A DNA stretch of 61,936 nt, the filler included, from Actinomycetota bacterium (GTDB lineage: Bacteria > Actinomycetota > Actinomycetes > JAKEEW01), in the NCBI GenBank assembly GCA_046725875.1. It is 4 parts of 4 records of this genome, joined end to end, with 100 filler letters (N's around TTAATTAATTAA, not from the genome) between each part and the next. Parts side by side here need not be neighbours in the genome. Positions count along the whole stretch, not along the records: positions 17,793 to 42,912 come from JBKOZJ010000058.1; 3 more parts are not named here. One strand, given 5' to 3'. The position numbers and the translations under genes are program-made. Within the stretch, counting starts at the first letter, position 1; every line of letters starts with the position of its first letter. The notes under the pieces are model-generated. The model had not been told where the DNA came from. It did not search any database and saw only the letters and a list, made by a program, of their open reading frames with translations. Below are positions 612-43,012 of this stretch, piece by piece.

Positions 612-2078
612 TCACCCGTCCGCCATACTGACGGCGTCACTCGTAACTGCCGAGCGCACTTCACGTTGCCGAACGGCGTGCTCATTCGTTCGTTCGTCGT
701 ACTGCCAGAAACGCGGCAACGCGGCGGCCAATCCGCCGACCGACGCGATGCACATCAACCCGCCGGAGACAATTGACGTGCGTACGCCGGACAACGCGGC
801 GACTCCGCCCGCTCGGGCTTGGCCGAGCAACGGACCGGACGTATAGCTAAGAAGCTCGATTCCGGCGAGCCGGCCGCGATACTGGTCCGGAATCGTCTGG
901 TTCCACATCGTGCTCCGGAATAGGCCGCTAACCATGTCGGCGCCCCCCGCCACAGCAAGGAAGAGCAGCACCAGCCAGACGTTGTCGACGAGCCCCGCCG
1001 CGGCAATCGCGGCACCCCAACCGATCGCCGCGTAGGCGATTGCTCGGCCATGCCGGTGTATTCGCCCGGTCCAGCCGCTGGTGAGCGTCGCGCACAACGA
1101 TCCCACCGAGATGGCCGCATAGAGCATGCCTAGCACCCACGGCGCGTCAAGGTCGTCGGCGAGGAATGGGTAGAGCGAGATCGGCATCGCGAAGAGCATC
1201 GCGGCCATGTCCACGACGTAGGTACCTACCAGCTCCTGGCGGCTCCCGGCATAGCGGATCCCGTCGACGATCCCGCGCAGGCTCGGCCGGTCTGCGTCCG
1301 GCGGCGGCGGGACCCTGCGCATCATCGACAGCGCCAGGAGGCAGACAAGAAAGGTCGCGACGTCGATGGTGTATGCAACCGCAAGCGGTGTAGTGACTAC
1401 GAGGACGCCGCCCACGACGGGCCCGAGAATCGATCCCGCCTGCCATCTGAACGAGGAGACGGCGGCCGCCGCCGCAAGTTGGTCGTGCCGAACAATCCGC
1501 GGGATCAGGGCTTCGAGCGAGGGTCGCTGGAGCCCGTCGAGCGCGCTGACCAATCCGACGACGAGATAGAGCGGCCACAACAGCGGCTTCGCGAGCAGTG
1601 AGTTGACAAGGAGCACGCAGACGAGCAGACACATGCCAGCCTCGCAAGCGAGCACCATCCTCCGGCGGTCGACGACGTCGGCGAGCGCGCCGCCCCACAG
1701 GCCGAAGCCGATGAGTAGCGCCAGTTCGGCGACGCCGAGCAGCCCGACGGCGACGTAGGATCCGGTGAGCTCCTTGACTTGGTACGGGATCGCCACGAAC
1801 GTGATGAAGCTGCCGAACATAGAGACTGCTCCGCCTCCGATGAGCAGGCGGAAGTCGCGGCTTGAGCACAGCGGCGCGATATCAACGGCAATGTGGCGGG
1901 CAAGGACTGCGAGTCTGGGCCGGTGGGCCGGTCGTACCTCAGTCTCGGCTGCGTCTGGTCGTACACCTTCCTTGGGGGGCGCCAGCGGGCGGTCAGGTAG
2001 TACCCGGCCGAGCTGAGGTTGGGGGTGGTCAGGCACGATGCGCGACGGTATGTCGCACCGCGAGTGATCGCCAGTCAT
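612..2078 (-). CDS. MFS transporter (EntS/MFS_3-like); true start probably downstream of 2078
   Basis: About 12 hydrophobic helices, motif A-like GALADVVDRRR, and RSTMWNQTIPDQYRGR...GPLLG typical of EntS-like exporters. Confidence 0.85.
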   Translation of the reverse strand: MTGDHSRCDIPSRIVPDHPQPQLGRVLPDRPLAPPKEGVRPDAAETEVRPAHRPRLAVLARHIAVDIAPLCSSRDFRLLIGGGAVSMFGSFITFVAIPYQVKELTGSYVAVGLLGVAELALLIGFGLWGGALADVVDRRRMVLACEAGMCLLVCVLLVNSLLAKPLLWPLYLVVGLVSALDGLQRPSLEALIPRIVRHDQLAAAAAVSSFRWQAGSILGPVVGGVLVVTTPLAVAYTIDVATFLVCLLALSMMRRVPPPPDADRPSLRGIVDGIRYAGSRQELVGTYVVDMAAMLFAMPISLYPFLADDLDAPWVLGMLYAAISVGSLCATLTSGWTGRIHRHGRAIAYAAIGWGAAIAAAGLVDNVWLVLLFLAVAGGADMVSGLFRSTMWNQTIPDQYRGRLAGIELLSYTSGPLLGQARAGGVAALSGVRTSIVSGGLMCIASVGGLAAALPRFWQYDERTNEHAVRQREVRSAVTSDAVSMADG

Positions 2079-2141
2079 TTAATCGAGCAGACGGCACGCT
2101 CATTTCGAGTCGGCCAGCGAGCGTATCACCGAGCGGCCGGC

Positions 2142-2810
2142 CTACCAGTCGGGGCGGGCGGGCGGGCCGGCGATCACGTCGAGGAAGCGGGCGAGCCTGC
2201 CCTGCGCCCGGCGGATGCGGCCTGGCTGGTCACTGGCCGCTACCGGCACGACATGCTGGCCGACGTTGAAGGTCAGCGGGTAGCCGGACACGGTCAGGGC
2301 GGGCCCGGGCCGCGCCGCGCGCCCCGACTCGTCCTCGCTCGCGCTGTCGGGCCCCCGGTCGGGCGGGAGCACGAGAGCATCGTGCGCGAGATCGCCAAGC
2401 TCGCGATCGCCGGTGTCCATCGTGAAGACCGTCGCGCCGACCTTGCGCGCATCGGCAATCCGCTCGAGCAGCGCCGCCGGTGCGACCTCCTCGGTGACGA
2501 CCATCAGCGTCTCGCCGCGCCGAGCCGCCTCGAGCCGGTCGAGGGACACCGCAAGATGCGCCGGCGCGTCCTGCGGCACCGACCAGCGGATCAGCGTCGC
2601 CTCCAGCTCCGGCAGCCCGGAATAGCGGGCCTCGTCGGCGAGGTGTGCCGTGAAGTGCCACGGTTCATAGCCCGGGGTGCCTACCACGAGAAGATCGCCG
2701 GATCGGCGGGCCGCGGACCGTCGCAGCGAGCCGGCGAACTCCCGCACGCGGTCGACGTGACCGGTCGGCGCGAGCGTTTCGAGGAGCAGCCGGGCCCGAG
2801 CGAGATCCAT
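2142..2810 (-). CDS. Conserved actinobacterial hypothetical protein (SIS-like fold possible)
   Basis: GC-rich codon usage; LLVVGTPGYEPWHFTAHLADEAR segment looks like a conserved domain; ATG at 2810. Confidence 0.7.
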   Translation of the reverse strand: MDLARARLLLETLAPTGHVDRVREFAGSLRRSAARRSGDLLVVGTPGYEPWHFTAHLADEARYSGLPELEATLIRWSVPQDAPAHLAVSLDRLEAARRGETLMVVTEEVAPAALLERIADARKVGATVFTMDTGDRELGDLAHDALVLPPDRGPDSASEDESGRAARPGPALTVSGYPLTFNVGQHVVPVAASDQPGRIRRAQGRLARFLDVIAGPPARPDW

Positions 2811-3020
2811 GCGACCATCTTGCCGGTAGAACCGTTGGCTCCCAAAGTCGGCGGGTCCAGCTGCCATGAACCGCGCCTACGCTGGGGACCCATACAGACC
2901 GTAACCAGCCACCGAGACCGGGCGTTGGCCACCTGAGCAGGGCCAATCTTCAAGATGTCCGGACAGCGACCGAAACTGGTGGCAAGCTTGCCGCTAACGG
3001 ACTGTGAAGTCTGGGGTGCC

Positions 3021-36710: not shown

Positions 36711-37589
36711 TCATCCCTTCACTCCGGTGAGCGTCACTCCACGGACAAAGGCCTTCTGGGCAAAGAAGAACAAGATGATGACCGGCACCATGACAAGGAG
36801 GGTGGCGGCCATGGTCAAGTTCCACTGGACCCGATGCAGGTCGCGGAAGCTCGCCAGGCCGAGCGCCAGCGTCCAGTTGTCTGCGTTCTCGCCGGTATAG
36901 ATCAGCGGCCCGAAGTAGTCATTCCAAGTCAGGAAGAACATGAACAGTCCGGCCGCGGCGATGCCGGGTTTCGCGAGCGGCAGGATGATCTGCAGCATGA
37001 CCCTCAGCTCCGAGCAGCCATCAGCGCGCGCCGCGTCGGCGTACTCCTCGGGGATGGTGAGCAGGAACTGCCGGATCAGGAAGATCGAGAATGCGTCGCC
37101 AAACAGGTTCGGCAGGATCAGCGGCCACAGCGTGCCGGTCAGGTCCCAGCGCGCCCAGAGAACATACAGCGGAACCACGGTGACCTGCGGCGGTAGCATC
37201 ATCATGACGAGGACGCCGAGAAAGGCAAGATTTCGGCCGCGCCACCGTAGCCGGGCAAGCGCATAGGCCGCCGGGATGCTCGACAGCAGCATGAAGCCGG
37301 TGGCCAGCACCGAGTACATCAGGCTGTTGGCGAGATAGCGCAGCATCGGGGCGTTGTCGAAGACCTTCCCGAAGTTGTCGAAGTGCCACGACTGCGGCCA
37401 CAGGTCTGGCGTAAGCGCCTGTTCGTTCGTCATCACCGAGGTGAGCACGATGAACACGAACGGCGCCAGGAAGGCGAGCGCCAGCGCGATCGCGAGAGCA
37501 TGCTCCCCGATGAAGGTGAGAGTCCTCCGCCGTCGGCCGGCTGCCCTGCGGGCAACCGGGCGCCGGATCGTCAAGCCTTGAACGGTCAT
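36711..37589 (-). CDS. csnG: Carbohydrate ABC permease, CsnG-like
   Basis: EAA-loop (DAARADG), WNDYFGP; ATGA coupling. Confidence 0.85.
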   Translation of the reverse strand: MTVQGLTIRRPVARRAAGRRRRTLTFIGEHALAIALALAFLAPFVFIVLTSVMTNEQALTPDLWPQSWHFDNFGKVFDNAPMLRYLANSLMYSVLATGFMLLSSIPAAYALARLRWRGRNLAFLGVLVMMMLPPQVTVVPLYVLWARWDLTGTLWPLILPNLFGDAFSIFLIRQFLLTIPEEYADAARADGCSELRVMLQIILPLAKPGIAAAGLFMFFLTWNDYFGPLIYTGENADNWTLALGLASFRDLHRVQWNLTMAATLLVMVPVIILFFFAQKAFVRGVTLTGVKG

Positions 37590-38599
37590 GCGCCCTCCGC
37601 CCCGTACAAGAAGACGCGTGAGCGTCGAAGCAGCACCGCGGTGAACGCCAGCGAGACGACGAACAGCAGCACTGCCATTGCGCATGCGTAGCCGAGCTGG
37701 AAGCTGGCGAAGCCTTTCTCGTACAGCCAGATCGGGAAGGTCAGCATCGAGTTGTCCGGGTAGCCGAGCCGACCGCCAAATCCCTCCCCAACCGGAGCAA
37801 CACCGCTTGCGACTGATGATGCGACGGCGGCTTGGGTGAAGAACTGCAGCATCTGGATCACGCCGGTGACCGCGGCGAAGAGCAGGACCGGCGAGATATT
37901 CGGCAGGGTCACATACCTGAACCGCTGCCACGCGTTGGCTCCGTCCAGATGCGCGGCCTCGTACTGCTCGGTCGGCACTTGCAGCAGCGACGCCAGAAAG
38001 ATCACCATGACGTCGCCCATCCCCCAGACGCAGAGGATCAGCAGGGTGGGTTTGGCTAGCGCCGGGTCCGAGAACCACAGCGGCTCCCAGCCGATGCCGA
38101 GCTTGCCAATGAACTGGTTGACCGGCCCAGTGGCCGGGTTGAACAGGTAGGTGAAGGCAAGCGTCGCCGCCACTGGCGGCGCCAGCGCGGGCAGGTAGAA
38201 GACGGTACGCAGGACGTTGCCGCCGCGCTTGATCAGGATGACCAGTTGGGCGATGAGCAGCGCAAAGAGGATCTTCGCGGGCACGACGAAGCAGGTCAGC
38301 CACAGTGTGTTGCGGACCGACTGAAGAGAGTACGGGTCCTGGGTGAAGAAGAAGCGGTAATTGCGCAGGCCGATGAAGACGGGCTGATCCAGCAGGTTGT
38401 ACCGGGTAAACGAGAACCACAGGGTGGCCCCGAGCGGATAGAGGAAGAAGACGCTGAACCCGATCGCCCACGGTGCCATCAGGGCAGCGACGAAGAGCCG
38501 ATGCCTGCGCCGCTTCTTCCGAAGCGGCGCAGGCACCTTTGCCCGGGCGGCGGGCGGGACGACTCGCTCGTCCGCGGCCGGCCGGACAAGCGTCGTCAC
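37586..38599 (-). CDS. csnF: Carbohydrate ABC permease, CsnF-like
   Basis: YEAAHLDGA, TLPNISP and GYACAMA motifs. Confidence 0.85.
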   Translation of the reverse strand: MTTLVRPAADERVVPPAARAKVPAPLRKKRRRHRLFVAALMAPWAIGFSVFFLYPLGATLWFSFTRYNLLDQPVFIGLRNYRFFFTQDPYSLQSVRNTLWLTCFVVPAKILFALLIAQLVILIKRGGNVLRTVFYLPALAPPVAATLAFTYLFNPATGPVNQFIGKLGIGWEPLWFSDPALAKPTLLILCVWGMGDVMVIFLASLLQVPTEQYEAAHLDGANAWQRFRYVTLPNISPVLLFAAVTGVIQMLQFFTQAAVASSVASGVAPVGEGFGGRLGYPDNSMLTFPIWLYEKGFASFQLGYACAMAVLLFVVSLAFTAVLLRRSRVFLYGAEGA

Positions 38600-39969
38600 G
38601 AACCCGTTCCCAGGTTGAGGCTGTCATCGATCTGCTTGGCGACGCTCTCGAGGCCGCCCTGCAGGTCTGTGGCTCGGCCGGTCTGCCACTTGACCAGCCA
38701 GGTACCAAACAGGTTCTGGTACTCGGCTCCGTTCTCCGTCGAGGGCGAGGTGGCGCTGTTCGGGTTGGCGAAGATGTCGAGGAACGTCTTGAAGTGGTCG
38801 TCGACCTGGAGGTCGGGCGACGCGAGTGCCGCGGTCGTCGTGGGCACGTTCTTGATCCCGTTAGACAGCTTGACGATCGCGCCGGTGTCCGTCGTCAGGT
38901 ACTTGATGAGCTCCCAAGCGGCCTCCGGGTTATCGGATCCGCGCGAGATTCCGACGATGTTGCCGGTGACGTAGCCACCGCCGTAGAGGTTCTGCTTGTC
39001 ATCGGCTGCCGGGAACGGTGCCGTCCCGTAGTCGAGATTCGGCTTGTCGGCGTCGATGAAGGCGATGCGCCACTCGCCGTCGAGCATCATGGCGACCCTG
39101 CCACGCTCGAAGTCGTTGGCGGCTGACCATTCGTCACCCTTGCCCGCGGAGAACTTTGTGAGCTTGTCCGCCCCGTAGTAGTCCACCAGCTGCTTCTGCC
39201 AGGTCAGCATCGCCTGCCATGCCGGATCGGTGGCGAGGGCGGACTTACCGCTTTGGTCGAACCAGGTCGCTCCCCAGTGCGGTGCCCAGTGGGCGGGGGA
39301 GTTCTCGTAGTAGTCGAGGTACGGCATGAAGCCGATCACGTCGATGTCGCCGTTCCCCTTGTGGGTCGTCAACTTCTTCGCCATTTCGGTGAGCTGCGAG
39401 AGCGTTCTTGGCGGCTCCGTGTACCCGGCGTCGGCGAGCAGCTTCTTGTTGTAGTAGAGGCCGTAGGTATCGGCGAGGACCGGCATCGAGCACCGGGTGC
39501 CCTTGTACTCCGTGTAGCTCCGGACCACGGGGGCCAGCTGGTTCATGTCGATCTTGTCCCGGTCGATGTAGGGCTTGAGGTCGCGCCACGCGCCGGTGGT
39601 GCAGAAATTGCCGACGATGTCCGTCGAGTAGGACAGTCCGACGTCCGGGCCCTTCCCAGCGGAGATCGCCTGGCGCATCTTTTCGTCGTCCTGGCCGCTG
39701 CTGACCTTGACGGTGACGCCGGCGTGGGCCGCCTCGAAGTCCTTCACAACGGCGTCGATGGCTTTCGCCTCCCGGCCGGTGAAGAAGTGCCAGAACTTGA
39801 CCTCGCCGGACGCACTTGCCGTCGGCGAAGCCAGCGGCTCGTCGCTCTTGTCCTCGGTAGCGGTACAGGCCGCCGTGAGCAAAGCGACTGCACCCAGCGC
39901 GAGTGTGAGCCGGCGCGGGATGGCTGCCGCTAGCTTGGCGGAACGCTCGGTCGATCGGGTCATGGTCAT
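38596..39969 (-). CDS. csnE: Sugar ABC substrate-binding lipoprotein, CsnE-like
   Basis: Lipobox TAAC, LYYNK, AMMLDGEW. Confidence 0.85.
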   Translation of the reverse strand: MTMTRSTERSAKLAAAIPRRLTLALGAVALLTAACTATEDKSDEPLASPTASASGEVKFWHFFTGREAKAIDAVVKDFEAAHAGVTVKVSSGQDDEKMRQAISAGKGPDVGLSYSTDIVGNFCTTGAWRDLKPYIDRDKIDMNQLAPVVRSYTEYKGTRCSMPVLADTYGLYYNKKLLADAGYTEPPRTLSQLTEMAKKLTTHKGNGDIDVIGFMPYLDYYENSPAHWAPHWGATWFDQSGKSALATDPAWQAMLTWQKQLVDYYGADKLTKFSAGKGDEWSAANDFERGRVAMMLDGEWRIAFIDADKPNLDYGTAPFPAADDKQNLYGGGYVTGNIVGISRGSDNPEAAWELIKYLTTDTGAIVKLSNGIKNVPTTTAALASPDLQVDDHFKTFLDIFANPNSATSPSTENGAEYQNLFGTWLVKWQTGRATDLQGGLESVAKQIDDSLNLGTGS

Positions 39970-41231
39970 GGGTGGGCTCCAGACGCTGGGGCGGTCGGGG
40001 GATGAGGTGGGGCGTGGTGTACGAGCGGCGCGCCCGCGACCGTTGATCCGAAGACGACATCGCGGGCGCGTTCCAGCGCGGCGAACGTGGCGCCGGCGAG
40101 AACCGGGTTTCCGCTGACTGTGGACAGTCGTAGCGGCGGCCTGGGAATGGTGAGGCGGGTGAGGTGCTGCTGTACCAGATCACGGAGCGGTTCGCCTCCG
40201 GCCGCGCAGACCTCTCCAGAAAGCACGACGAGGGTTGGGTCCAGGGCGGCGATCGCCGCGGCGAGGCCCGCCGCCAGGCGTTGCGCGAGTTCGTAGAGGA
40301 ATGGGCTCTGCCGGACGTCCGGATCGGCCCGGCTCGCGGCGGCGATCGCCGCCGGGGCGTTCTGGGCTCGGATACCGTGCCGCCTTGCCAGGGCGAGGAC
40401 CGCTGGGCTTCCAACCGACGACTGAAGCGCCCCTTTTGCACTAAGGCCGACATGATCGGGGAGTGGGGCGCCGGGGACCGGCATGTAGCCGATCTCGCCG
40501 GCGCCGCCGGTCGCCCCGCGGTAGAGATCCCCGCCGATGACGATCGCCATGCCGACGCCGGTGCTCACCCAGAGGAGGAGGAAGTCGGCGACCCCGCGGG
40601 CGGTGCCCGTTCGGCTCTCCGCAACCGCCGCGAGGTTGACGTCGTTCTCGATCTCGACGGGGGCGCTGAGCGCCTCGCTGAGCCGCTCCACCAGGCCGCT
40701 GCCATGCCAACCCGGGAGGTGGTGCGCGTACCCGAGCTGTCCGGTCTGTGGGTTGAGTGCGCCGGGGGTGGCGACCACGACATGGGTCAAATCTGTTGTG
40801 TCCAGGTCGATCGCCTCGGCCGCCGCCGTCAGTGCCGCCGTCGTCGCACGTATCGCATCCGCGCCCGCCCGCCCCGGTGTTCTGTACGTTCCTCGGGCGA
40901 CCACGCGGCCGGTGATGTCCGCGACGGCCGCCTCGATACCGGCGGGCGTCACGTCCATCGCAGCGATGTACGCCGCACCCGGGTTGACTTCGTACAGCTG
41001 AGCTGTGCGGCCGGAGGCTCGCGGGCCAACCGGGATGACCAGGCGGGCATCCTCGAGGCGGGCAAGTAGCTGGGACGCGGTCGGTTTCGAAAGGCCGGTG
41101 AGCCTTCCGATCTGGGCCCGGGAGAGCGGACCTCGCTCCAGCAGCAGTTCCAGCGCTGCTCGGTCGTTGATCGCACGCAGAAGTGCGGGCTGGCCGGGCA
41201 TCGCTCCCGCTTGCTGATAGGTGCGTTGCAT
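39966..41231 (-). CDS. csnR: ROK family transcriptional repressor, CsnR-like
   Basis: HTH (LSRAQIGRLTGLSKPT), ENDVNLAA and GAGEIG motifs; first gene of ROK-SBP-2 permeases-GH4-kinase operon. Start is 41231 or 41201. Confidence 0.85.
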   Translation of the reverse strand: MQRTYQQAGAMPGQPALLRAINDRAALELLLERGPLSRAQIGRLTGLSKPTASQLLARLEDARLVIPVGPRASGRTAQLYEVNPGAAYIAAMDVTPAGIEAAVADITGRVVARGTYRTPGRAGADAIRATTAALTAAAEAIDLDTTDLTHVVVATPGALNPQTGQLGYAHHLPGWHGSGLVERLSEALSAPVEIENDVNLAAVAESRTGTARGVADFLLLWVSTGVGMAIVIGGDLYRGATGGAGEIGYMPVPGAPLPDHVGLSAKGALQSSVGSPAVLALARRHGIRAQNAPAAIAAASRADPDVRQSPFLYELAQRLAAGLAAAIAALDPTLVVLSGEVCAAGGEPLRDLVQQHLTRLTIPRPPLRLSTVSGNPVLAGATFAALERARDVVFGSTVAGAPLVHHAPPHPPTAPASGAHP

Positions 41232-41269
41232 CGACCACCGCCCTAATCCCTGGCACCGAGAGGCGTTGG

Positions 41270-41288
41270 GTGAGTAAAGTTTCCTCAC
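41270..41288. promoter_or_regulatory. CsnR-type operator
   Basis: Palindrome GTGAGGAAACTTTACTCAC (minus strand), one mismatch from the CsnR box AGGAAA-N-TTTCCT. Confidence 0.8.
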
Positions 41289-41381: not shown

Positions 41382-41828
41382 GTGGACTCCAAGACTCGGA
41401 TCGTCGGCCGCCGCTTGGCCGTGGCAGCCGTGGTGCTCGGCCAGCTCTTTTTCGTCGCCCGGGGCTACTGGTCCACCCACAAGGAGTTCGCGTTCCAGAT
41501 GTTCCCCGAGTCGAGCACTTGGCAGGCGTCCATCGTGCGGGTCATTGGGGACGGCGAAAGGATCTCGGTTACGGAGCCCTGGGCGGGCTATACCTGGAAC
41601 GACCTGGTAAGCGGTCGTGGTCTTCAGAGCCCATGGATTAGGCACCACGCGGACGCCGGCGTGGACAACCAACTCGCCTTTCTGCGCAGCGCCCTGCAGT
41701 GGGTGGCCGACCATACGCCCCGGGACCGCCAGACGCGGTATCTCGAGGCAACCGTGACCTACTGGCACAACCTCGACCCACCGCAGACGCTCGTGCTGCG
41801 TACCGACAAACGCGAGGAGTCACGCTGA
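41382..41828 (+). CDS. Membrane-anchored protein resembling the C-terminal/lumenal domain of vitamin K-dependent carboxylases
   Basis: One TM ending GQLF, then FAFQMF, HHAD and YLEATVTYWHN..PQ; coupled to the downstream HTTM gene. Confidence 0.7.
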   Translation: MDSKTRIVGRRLAVAAVVLGQLFFVARGYWSTHKEFAFQMFPESSTWQASIVRVIGDGERISVTEPWAGYTWNDLVSGRGLQSPWIRHHADAGVDNQLAFLRSALQWVADHTPRDRQTRYLEATVTYWHNLDPPQTLVLRTDKREESR

Positions 41829-42912
41829 CCGCCACGGGCGTCGCCACCGCCACCGGCCGGGCGGGGCTCATCGCACGCATCGATGAGCTCGTCGGCCGCC
41901 GGGTGAGCATGCGGGCGCTGGCTCTGCTGCGGACCCTCGTCGGGCCGGTTGTGCTGCTATACCTGCAGCCATTCCTGGTCGACGCCGCAGAGGGCCGGAT
42001 CTATAGCGACGCCTTCTATGAGCCGTACGCGACCTGGTACCCCGAGCTGCCGCGCTCCCTTTACGTCGGCCTGCTGTGGCTCGGTGCGGCCGCCGCCGTC
42101 GCCATGTCGCTGGGCCTACTGACCCGGGTTGCCGCCCCAGTGACGTTTGGCGTGGTCGCTTACAACCAGTTCCTCTCCACTACGCATTTCCACAACAACC
42201 GGGCATACCTCCTGATCGTCCTCGCCGCACTCGCGATCACTCCGTGCGGGCGCGAGATCTCCCTCGACTCGTGGCTGCGCGCCCGGCGTGGGCTGCCCCC
42301 GCTGGACGAAAGCGGGCCAGCGTGGCCGCTGTGGCTGCTCCGGTTCGAGGCGTCCGCTGTATACGGCGCGTCGGGGTTGAGCAAGCTGCTAGATCCGGAC
42401 TGGTTCGGTGGCGCGGTGACCTGGGACCGAGTGGTCCAAAAGCGCGACCAGCTGGCCGCGACGCCGCTGCCGGAGTGGATCGTGTCGCTGCTGACCGACC
42501 GTTCGTTTCATGAGTACGCCGCCAAGCTCATCGTGCTCACCGAGCTCTTCATCGCTGTCGGCCTCTGGTGGCGCGGGACTCGCTACGCCGCCGTCTGGGT
42601 CGCCGTCTGCTTCCACCTCTCCATCCAGGCATCGGCCGATGTAGAGGTGTTCTCATACCTGGGCATCGCAGCGCTGGTGATCTGGGCGGTGCCCACAACC
42701 CGCGATCGAGTCGTGCTGCTTGACCTGGCAATTCCGGCGCATCGTCGGCTTGCGGACGTGATCAAGTCACTCGACTGGCTTGCGCGCTTCCGCATCGACC
42801 CGTCGGACGGACCAGGTCGACTTCGTGTCGTTGATCGTGACGGCAGTACGTACGACGGACCTGCGGCGCTCGTCCTCGTATTCAGCCGCCTCCCACTTAC
42901 CGCCTGGTTCGC
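41825..42912 (+). CDS. HTTM-domain (VKGC-like) membrane protein with C-terminal DCC-like domain; 3' end lost at spacer
   Basis: HNNRAYLL, SLD, LLRFEASAVYGASGLSKLLDPDW, ELF and FHL motifs; tail LDWLARF...VVDRDG...G..A....SRLP. Start is uncertain (CTG 41825 or GTG/ATG 41903/41909). Confidence 0.85.
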
Positions 42913-43012
42913 NNNNNNNNNNNNNNNNNNNNNNNNNNNNNNNNNNNNNNNNNNNNTTAATTAATTAANNNNNNNNNNNNNNNNNNNNNNNNNNNNNNNN
43001 NNNNNNNNNNNN
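42913..43012. other. Artificial contig spacer
   Basis: N44-TTAATTAATTAA-N44. Confidence 0.98.

Follow-up and report, generated by a model that had tools for sequence, protein, structure and literature searches.

The vitamin-K-dependent γ-glutamyl carboxylase of animals, GGCX, is described as a protein of nine membrane helices, followed by a loop (LL9) that covers vitamin K and aids substrate binding, and then by lumenal clamps (PMC12647623). MloH, from malonomycin biosynthesis, is a fused bacterial carboxylase that is reported to act on aspartyl residues, and in the accessible text of the two sources that treat it, MloH is the only bacterial relative of GGCX cited with an assigned reaction outside animals (bioRxiv 10.64898/2026.08.19.745780; PMC12647623). 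A preprint of August 2026 also models a DUF5819 protein, which consists of a single helix and a domain, together with an adjacent HTTM/DCC1-like protein as a GGCX-like complex (bioRxiv 10.64898/2026.08.19.745780). Here we analyze two overlapping genes, A and B, at positions 41,382 to 42,912 of a stretch of DNA from an Actinomycetota bacterium (the whole stretch analyzed, 61,936 nucleotides, is called the window). They occupy the last 1.5 kb of contig C58 in a metagenome-assembled genome of 3.76 Mb (G000; 197 contigs, 89% complete), and encode a small single-pass membrane protein (A) followed by an HTTM protein (B). We consider it fairly probable that A and B together form a split, two-subunit GGCX-like enzyme whose parts are encoded in swapped order. 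A split GGCX design has already been proposed for DUF5819/HTTM pairs, and the A-B family is a different family of that design.

Protein B and the membrane core of GGCX

B matched the HTTM family PF05090 over residues 28-288 (E 7.7e-22; 78.6 bits against a cut-off of 27.7), and HTTM was the sole family above cut-off in all 28 homologues that were scanned. An NCBIfam scan of B gave no match. The protein belongs to a large group, with at least 2068 homologous clusters. The gene lies in a different frame from A and is cut at position 42,912, leaving 362 of approximately 388 codons; about 26 residues are missing, because the contig ends there and full-length orthologues have about 388 residues. The fold of B was modeled with AlphaFold 2 (AF2), from 28 sequences, on the complete 388-residue orthologue of the relative G003, which is 72% identical to B. 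Compared with the PDB by Foldseek, this model had 15 matches at E ≤ 0.001, and human GGCX filled the first 16 rows. The best row was 9wfc_A (E 8e-7), the GGCX rows had TMq values of 0.50-0.55 at 17-22% identity, and the first row for any other protein had an E value of 0.1. B therefore has the fold of the GGCX membrane core.

Searches of PDB sequences with the B orthologue and with the B profile gave 0 matches each, and for this reason we used a fused bacterial protein as a bridge from B to GGCX. A search with PF22777, the VKGC_lumenal_dom family, found this 513-residue protein (L107:403-1941) in a single genome among 301 of the class. Its scores are 258.6 bits for HTTM and 109.4 bits for PF22777, and phmmer aligns it with GGCX at 1.2e-41. 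The B family aligned with the HTTM part of the fused protein, and with that part only, at 98% in hhalign (E 1.7e-13). Chaining these alignments placed GGCX K218 on K187 of B, W223 on W193, D263 on E240, F286 on F263 and F299 on F276. All five residues of B are invariant in an alignment of 29 sequences (A5). The roles given to their GGCX counterparts are, in the same order, those of the base, a stacking tryptophan, a neighboring acid, the floor of the quinone pocket and stacking on CO2 (PMC12647623). H121, H123, N125 and R126 of B are also invariant in the 29 sequences. They belong to the motif HFHNNR, which aligns with the WNNH region of GGCX in a register that differs by one residue between alignments.

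An earlier note on this DNA, made from the sequence alone, had described a 148-residue single-helix gene followed by an overlapping HTTM gene, and both reading frames lie where it placed them. The GGCX strings that it gave for comparison (WNNHSYL, LRGQ...VYFIAGVKKLDADW, EQLF, YSWDMM, DHAD and IYFDIWVSIN..QQ) all occur in human GGCX, in that order. Its assignment of the HTTM protein to the N-terminal membrane half of GGCX, with a Lys kept at the catalytic-base position, agrees with the Foldseek result and with the equivalence of K187 and K218. Its pairing of HNNRAYL with WNNHSYL stands for the region, and is ambiguous by one residue in detail.

Beyond the core, residues 293-378 of the B orthologue form an alpha/beta domain of approximately 90 residues that is followed by a terminal hydrophobic helix, according to the AF2 secondary structure. 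The domain had no Pfam match, either in the isolated C-terminal 105 residues or in the homologues. DCC1-like thiol-disulfide oxidoreductases carry the motif DxxCxxC, and a DCC1-like domain was considered for this position and found no support: none of the 28 homologues matched at E ≤ 1, nor did the isolated 105 residues. The C-terminal stretch of the B alignment contains no cysteines.

Protein A, its pairing with B and its probable likeness to the GGCX lumenal part

Whole-library scans assigned A to no Pfam-A or NCBIfam family at E ≤ 1, and 30 distant members of its family had no significant Pfam match. The family comprises at least 1990 homologous clusters at E ≤ 0.01, with every listed name 'hypothetical', and 185 representatives at 50% identity. 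Orthologues in the relatives G003, G005 and G006 are 72-73% identical to A. AF2 modeled A with a predicted local distance difference test (pLDDT) value of 83.9, as a helix at residues 3-26, a short helix at 29-39 and an alpha/beta domain. Lys and Arg residues precede the first helix, which suggests an N-in, C-out topology. F41, A104 and D115 do not vary among the 45 diverse members of alignment A2, Q21 is invariant in the close-family alignment A1, and the motif RHHADAG is invariant among close relatives only. A PDB search with the A profile did not return GGCX; the only matches were 5cof_A (E 0.013) and 5w7m_A (E 0.65).

We surveyed 80 loci that encode members at least 59% identical to the window's A, a set that leaves out distant Myxococcota-like members. 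These loci come from Acidimicrobiia, Thermoleophilia/Solirubrobacterales, Actinomycetes and Chloroflexota, with one Pyrinomonadaceae record. In all 79 testable loci, B follows A directly on the same strand; the contig of the 80th ends 56 nt past A. A survey from the B side in another class found B in 2 of 151 genomes, at three loci, and A was upstream in each of them (3/3). The module itself is patchy: two of the 301 genomes from the window's class have it, as do 2 of 401 genomes of the phylum sample. The pairing of A with B is thus far more than chance. Several proteins in the A family looked like A-B fusions (10 of the 24 proteins above 200 residues that were printed), and we do not count them as fusions because they are mostly wrong-frame open reading frame (ORF) calls that span both genes. 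One of the three loci found from the B side is a decayed second copy of the cassette in an intact genome (G527:C10:549891-551204, minus strand), in which A is in three pieces and B is in three pieces with a TAG; the two genes seem to have been lost together.

The stop codon of A overlaps the start of B by four nucleotides of the form NTGA. Junctions at the 80 related loci were GTGA in 48, ATGA in 19, CTGA in 6, TTGA in 4, GTAA in 2 and CTAG in 1, so that 71 of 80 have an NTGA overlap with a canonical start. At the window locus the start position of B is CTG (41825), and homologues have ATG, GTG or TTG at exactly that codon. Because CTGA is found in 6 of 80 loci, we regard it as a recurring minority form of the A/B junction. 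The next canonical in-frame starts (GTG 41903 and ATG 41909) would cut off invariant N-terminal residues of B.

We then predicted a complex of the window's A with residues 1-296 of the window's B, each supplied with an alignment. The pair obtained an ipSAE of 0.82 (0.83, 0.82 and 0.80 in separate runs), and the best of three controls obtained 0.00. At least 97% of contacts were common to the runs, and partner pLDDT values were at least 86. For this tool, the mark is reached by 116 of 157 solved complexes and by 2 of 215 mismatched pairs. In the predicted complex the helix of A packs on residues 165-187 of B, a helix that ends in K187, and residues 33-44 of A touch B 178-199 and 119-128, placing the FAFQMF segment over the catalytic lysine. 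Helices 74-79 and 100-108 of A grip B 63-66, and the N-terminal arginines of A contact B 19-24. The predicted interface includes F41 and A104, which are invariant throughout the A family, and the near-invariant V108.

The fused protein L107 has a miniature GGCX layout, in which the core is followed by a helix, a FAWHM loop and approximately 140 residues, and we compared A with this C-terminal part. The close-family alignment A1 gave 0.8% in hhalign against the single fused sequence, so a diverse alignment is needed to see any signal. The 45-member alignment A2 gave 47% (E 1.9e-4) against the same sequence. For a broader comparison we assembled a lumenal set from 80 metagenome loci fetched, out of 106 relatives among 598 pattern matches. 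Filtering for a complete 3′ end and sufficient N-terminal cover left 75 loci and 67 unique sequences, or 68 with L107. Against this 68-sequence alignment, A2 reached 75.8% (P 2.3e-5, score 38.0) over 127 collinear columns that extend from the membrane helix to the last strands. A larger A alignment of 170 sequences reached 68.4% (P 4.7e-5), and the collinear span over both was 123-127 columns. Reversed-alignment controls scored 12-13. With the helices trimmed from both alignments, 30 column shuffles gave a maximum of 16.4, compared with 26.3 observed. DUF5819, used as a single-pass control family, scored 15.3 against the lumenal set and 18.1 against A.

Chaining the hhalign result with the GGCX alignment put three pairs of motifs in register: GQLF with EQLF, FAFQMF with YSWDMM, and the strand YLEATVTYWHN with IYFDIWVSIN. 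M40 of A falls on GGCX M401, F38 on W399 and F41 on M402. M401 is described as lying on the quinone ring, with its backbone contacting K218 and bicarbonate (PMC12647623). A fourth pair, HHAD with DHAD, is shifted by approximately four residues and lacks conservation across the wider A family, and the match is therefore probably due to chance. On the strength of the profile comparisons, A is probably homologous to the C-terminal part of GGCX. Thus, of the four motif pairs through which the earlier note had linked the small protein to the C-terminal half of GGCX, three hold their register, and the proposed relationship is upheld at the level of profiles and not by family or fold searches. The small gene does co-occur with HTTM genes and the pair does have a predicted interface, as that note had anticipated. 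Its reading of the locus as a split GGCX-like two-protein enzyme is supported, and none of the three lines examined against it (likeness of the small protein to the lumenal domain, co-occurrence and a predicted interface) refuted it.

Several observations weigh against a split GGCX-like enzyme. A resembles the lumenal domain only when profile is compared with profile, and without the helices the match drops to 23% in hhalign (score 26.3, 42 columns). PF22777 matched neither A nor the 30 distant members at E ≤ 1 and had no match in a six-frame search of the genome at E ≤ 10, and searches of HMMs against sequences that could link A with the lumenal domain reached at most 13.7 bits. Foldseek with the A model gave nothing at E ≤ 0.001; the best rows were kinesins (TMq 0.33), and GGCX was absent from the rows shown. 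A wide VIA search with this model had a best Z of 5.5, to proteasome subunits and other alpha/beta sandwiches, and VIA on Foldseek's top 986 chains had a best Z of 5.9, with no GGCX among the rows shown in either case. The complex score may reflect likeness to GGCX rather than binding, because GGCX is a solved structure. On the side of B, the orthologue model has a pLDDT of 69.0, which is moderate confidence, and GGCX His160 falls on N125 or R126 and is not clearly kept; in GGCX, N159 and H160 bind the substrate carboxylate. No VKOR gene for epoxide recycling was found in the genome, which is 89% complete. In the window, B has CTG at its start position and is truncated, which makes the integrity of this copy uncertain.

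The module resembles GGCX in the membrane-core fold of B and in its equivalents of K218, W223, D263 (as Glu), F286 and F299, and A is collinear with TM9, LL9 and the first lumenal domain, with Met at the M401 position. Unlike GGCX, it consists of two polypeptides with the C-terminal part encoded first. A has only about 110 extracytoplasmic residues and lacks the jelly-roll clamp B, the C-terminal domain and a recognizable propeptide-binding site, whereas B has an extra C-terminal alpha/beta domain. The cofactor of the module would be menaquinone. Fused minimal bacterial proteins such as L107 and MloH have the same parts (an HTTM core, a helix, a FAWHM-type loop and a lumenal domain of approximately 140 residues), and A and B align to these parts. 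In contrast to the module, the fused proteins are one chain in which the core precedes the lumenal domain, and HTTM gives L107 258.6 bits but B 78.6 bits, whereas PF22777 gives L107 109.4 bits and does not match A at all.

The published DUF5819 (PF19136)/HTTM pair is similar in having a single-pass small protein just upstream of an HTTM protein with an extra C-terminal domain, in a predicted complex that resembles the whole of GGCX, and in a hydrophobic pair that follows the helix at the quinone pocket, Leu59/Phe60 in that system and M40/F41 in A (bioRxiv 10.64898/2026.08.19.745780). The two families are nonetheless distinct. A has no PF19136 match at E ≤ 1, and its family gives 0.9% in hhalign against 14 DUF5819 sequences. 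The A family shows profile similarity to the GGCX lumenal domain, whereas DUF5819 does not (15.3, the control value above). No DCC1-like character is detected in the C-terminal domain of B, and a third conserved gene is present in our loci. A six-frame search of the genome for DUF5819 at E ≤ 10 had its sole match in an unrelated ORF on another contig. Full-text literature searches found no paper on the A family, which has no name to search by, and the supplements of the preprint may include it.

A third gene, a proposed mechanism and alternative explanations

Screens of ORF clusters in the flanks of the 80 loci revealed gene C as the sole conserved neighbor of the pair. It was uncovered by a short-ORF screen and resolved to a 605-residue gene. 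Of 77 testable loci, 60 have C immediately after B, starting within a few bases of the B stop codon; 17 loci have at least 600 nt of room and no C, 2 lack the room and 1 lacks B. The earlier note had described a two-gene system, which is corrected here: A and B are mostly part of a three-gene module. C proteins (about 592-634 residues) have an N-terminal helix, an ectodomain of approximately 400 residues and a MarC-like membrane domain, which scored 29.8 bits (cut-off 23.9) in one member and less in others. The ectodomain had sub-threshold matches only, to SQHop_cyclase_C (E 0.0023), LANC_like (E 0.005) and osq_cycl (E 0.0018), together with a GH127 lead on 13% of one cluster (atlas). From these matches it may be an alpha/alpha toroid. 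A PDB search with C gave 0 matches.

The window genome carries C intact on another contig (C27:1292-3196, minus strand; L195), where it is 63% identical to the L020 gene and adjoins a divergent trypsin/PDZ protease gene instead of an HTTM gene. Where C was not adjacent to the pair, it was found elsewhere in 5 of 5 other genomes checked. C is present in 2 of 201 genomes of the class sample, the same two that carry the A-B pair; these genomes are kin, so this co-occurrence counts as one observation. Long HTTM proteins carried B and C in one ORF in 9 of 10 cases and A, B and C in the remaining case. The single-ORF B+C cases are P0392-P0400, L022 and L029, with P0394 (1243 residues) holding all three parts. 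All are singletons from metagenome-assembled genomes, and they may be real fusions or artefacts of indels at near-abutting gene ends.

Based on the GGCX paradigm, we propose that B would be the membrane core that binds menaquinol and carries the catalytic K187. A would provide in trans the ninth membrane helix, the lid loop and a small extracytoplasmic domain where GGCX has its lumenal domain, with M40 and F41 (the Met-Phe of FAFQMF) covering the quinone ring and the lysine. The active site would be composite, and therefore neither A nor B should work alone. The four-nucleotide overlap of start and stop would couple translation of the two subunits. By analogy with GGCX, K187 would deprotonate menaquinol, and reaction with O2 would yield a strong base, which would then take a proton from a substrate at the outer membrane face. 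Addition of CO2 to the substrate would most likely follow, and quinone epoxide would also be formed. The genome contains menA (276.6 bits; cut-off 102). C would be co-transcribed with A and B in most genomes, and, by analogy, it probably handles the substrate or is itself the substrate. A more elaborate version of this proposal, which we offer tentatively and do not expect to hold in full, is a three-component menaquinol/O2 enzyme that makes a strong base, with lid and ninth helix supplied in trans by a single-pass subunit and with C presenting a substrate that is not a peptide or belongs to the envelope. In that case animal GGCX would descend by fusion from a two-subunit ancestor, or the module would be a fission of it, and the family would record how the carboxylase was assembled. 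Such an enzyme would also point to vitamin-K-type carboxylation, or another base-driven modification, as a widespread chemistry of the cell envelope in soil Actinomycetota and Chloroflexota.

The same evidence bears on other explanations for the locus. A could be a lineage-specific accessory subunit that is analogous, not homologous, to the C-terminal part of GGCX, with motif matches that arose by convergence on the contact surface. HTTM subfamilies do have different small single-pass partners without detectable mutual similarity: the A family finds neither DUF5819 nor the partner of the genome's second HTTM gene (0.6%) in hhalign, and a DUF5819-like variant of the partner occurs in G416 and G441. 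Sequence-level and fold searches are equally silent on a link between A and GGCX. We nevertheless judge this explanation unlikely, given a collinear hhalign match that stands far above the reversed, shuffled and DUF5819 controls and three motif pairs in register, including the Met equivalent to M401. A decayed, non-functional window copy, which has lost its start codon and whose truncation hides further damage, would fit the CTG at the B start, the end of the gene at 42912 and the existence of a decayed whole-cassette copy in G527. This is very unlikely: both frames are open over all of the sequence present, A is 72-73% and B 72% identical to orthologues in relatives, all invariant residues are kept, CTGA recurs in six otherwise intact loci, and gene C is intact elsewhere in the genome.

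Two further alternatives would assign the pair to other chemistry. B could be a DoxX/MauE-like quinone-linked oxidoreductase, for example in thiol or sulfur chemistry, that does without base chemistry driven by oxygenation and has A as a structural partner. MauE matches B below threshold (E 7e-4; 20.3 bits against a cut-off of 27) and does so in 17 of 28 homologues, DoxX matches 6 of 28 below threshold, and some sources name homologues 'YphA (DoxX/SURF4 family)'. Only HTTM exceeds its cut-off, the fold of B matches only GGCX, the residues of the GGCX quinone and CO2 pocket do not vary, and B has a single invariant Cys (C141) with no CxxC noted in the alignment, all of which make such an oxidoreductase a slender prospect. 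SdpB of Bacillus subtilis is an HTTM protein, encoded in an overlapping gene after that of the small protein SdpA. A and B share this layout, and B. subtilis gives an HTTM control match, so the pair might instead mature or export a secreted antimicrobial peptide. This we hold to be highly improbable. A has no SdpA-family match in the Pfam-A and NCBIfam scans, and the conserved neighbor in the flanks of the 80 loci is a 600-residue membrane protein, a different third gene from the SdpC-like precursor and immunity genes of that system, which are absent. The earlier note had offered SdpA/SdpB as a parallel, and in this it has been superseded: among published systems, the DUF5819/HTTM pair is the closest parallel (bioRxiv 10.64898/2026.08.19.745780).

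The A-B family is large and unannotated, and extends over soil Acidimicrobiia, Thermoleophilia, Actinomycetes and Chloroflexota. It would supply a natural two-piece enzyme whose lid, which covers the quinone and the catalytic lysine, could be removed or swapped genetically. The A family would also provide a sequence bridge, missing from the published DUF5819 case, between small single-pass HTTM partners and the GGCX lumenal domain, and gene C is a concrete candidate for the missing substrate-handling partner. Annotators of HTTM genes should take the small upstream ORF into account as well.

Coordinates, flanking genes and other HTTM partners

The features of the locus are collected in the table. 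The run of N's at 42913-43012 is a joint between contigs, so genes after 43012 are not neighbors of B.

Features at the A-B locus and in its flanks (positions in the window)
Feature	Position	Strand	Basis and remarks
Gene A	41382..41828	+	GTG 41382 to TGA 41826-41828; 148-residue single-pass membrane protein, N-terminal helix and ~110-residue extracytoplasmic alpha/beta domain
Membrane helix of A, residues 3-26	41388..41459	+	AF2 helix; proposed counterpart of GGCX TM9; contains GQLF
Residues 33-44 of A (HKEFAFQMFPES)	41478..41513	+	hhalign/GGCX register; proposed counterpart of GGCX lid loop LL9 (YSWDMM)
CTGA junction	41825..41828	+	stop of A overlaps start position of B
Gene B	41825..42912	+	PF05090; HTTM polytopic membrane protein, counterpart of GGCX TM1-TM8; 3′-truncated
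HFHNNR, residues 121-126 of B	42185..42202	+	counterpart of GGCX WNNH region (alignments)
K187 codon of B	42383..42385	+	equivalent of GGCX catalytic base K218 (chained alignments)
Start of C-terminal alpha/beta domain of B, residues 296-362	42710..42912	+	AF2 of orthologue; rest lost at contig end
N run with TTAATTAATTAA linker	42913..43012	.	joint between two contigs, not biology
ROK-family regulator, winged-helix N-terminus	39966-41288	-	
Solute-binding protein	38596-39969	-	
ABC permease	37586-38599	-	

On the other side of A, and divergent from it, lies an ordinary sugar-uptake locus (36711-41288, minus strand). The ROK-family regulator is also present in the relative G003, and the regulator and the sugar ATP-binding cassette (ABC) transporter genes have no conserved association with the module elsewhere.

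We also observed other small proteins beside HTTM genes. Contig C83 of the window genome (L189:857-2394, plus strand) carries a second pair: a 155-residue ORF whose N-terminal helix is hydrophobic, and a 357-residue HTTM gene (PF05090, 32.4 bits) that overlaps it by ATGA. The 155-residue protein belongs to no Pfam family, and it is this partner that gave 0.6% against the A family. Its C-terminal stretch H-P-D-E-x-Q-x-V-R-L aligns with the conserved HTP.D.ET..L region. In G416 and G441 (L101 and L102, approximately 1321-2834, plus strand) a single-pass protein of 183-204 residues with the motif QNWNLFAPDP precedes an HTTM gene, and barely reaches DUF5819 (28 bits, positions 20-55 only). This further partner type suggests that small HTTM partners form a spectrum and have in common a hydrophobic pair directly behind the helix. 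DUF5819 genes were found in 9 of 9 sampled genomes of a large-genome actinomycete genus (g32; L092-L100 and L104-L106). Several of the encoded proteins have long N-terminal extensions rich in Pro, Gly and Ala, and an HTTM-like reading frame follows the DUF5819 gene in at least L094, L095, L097 and L099.

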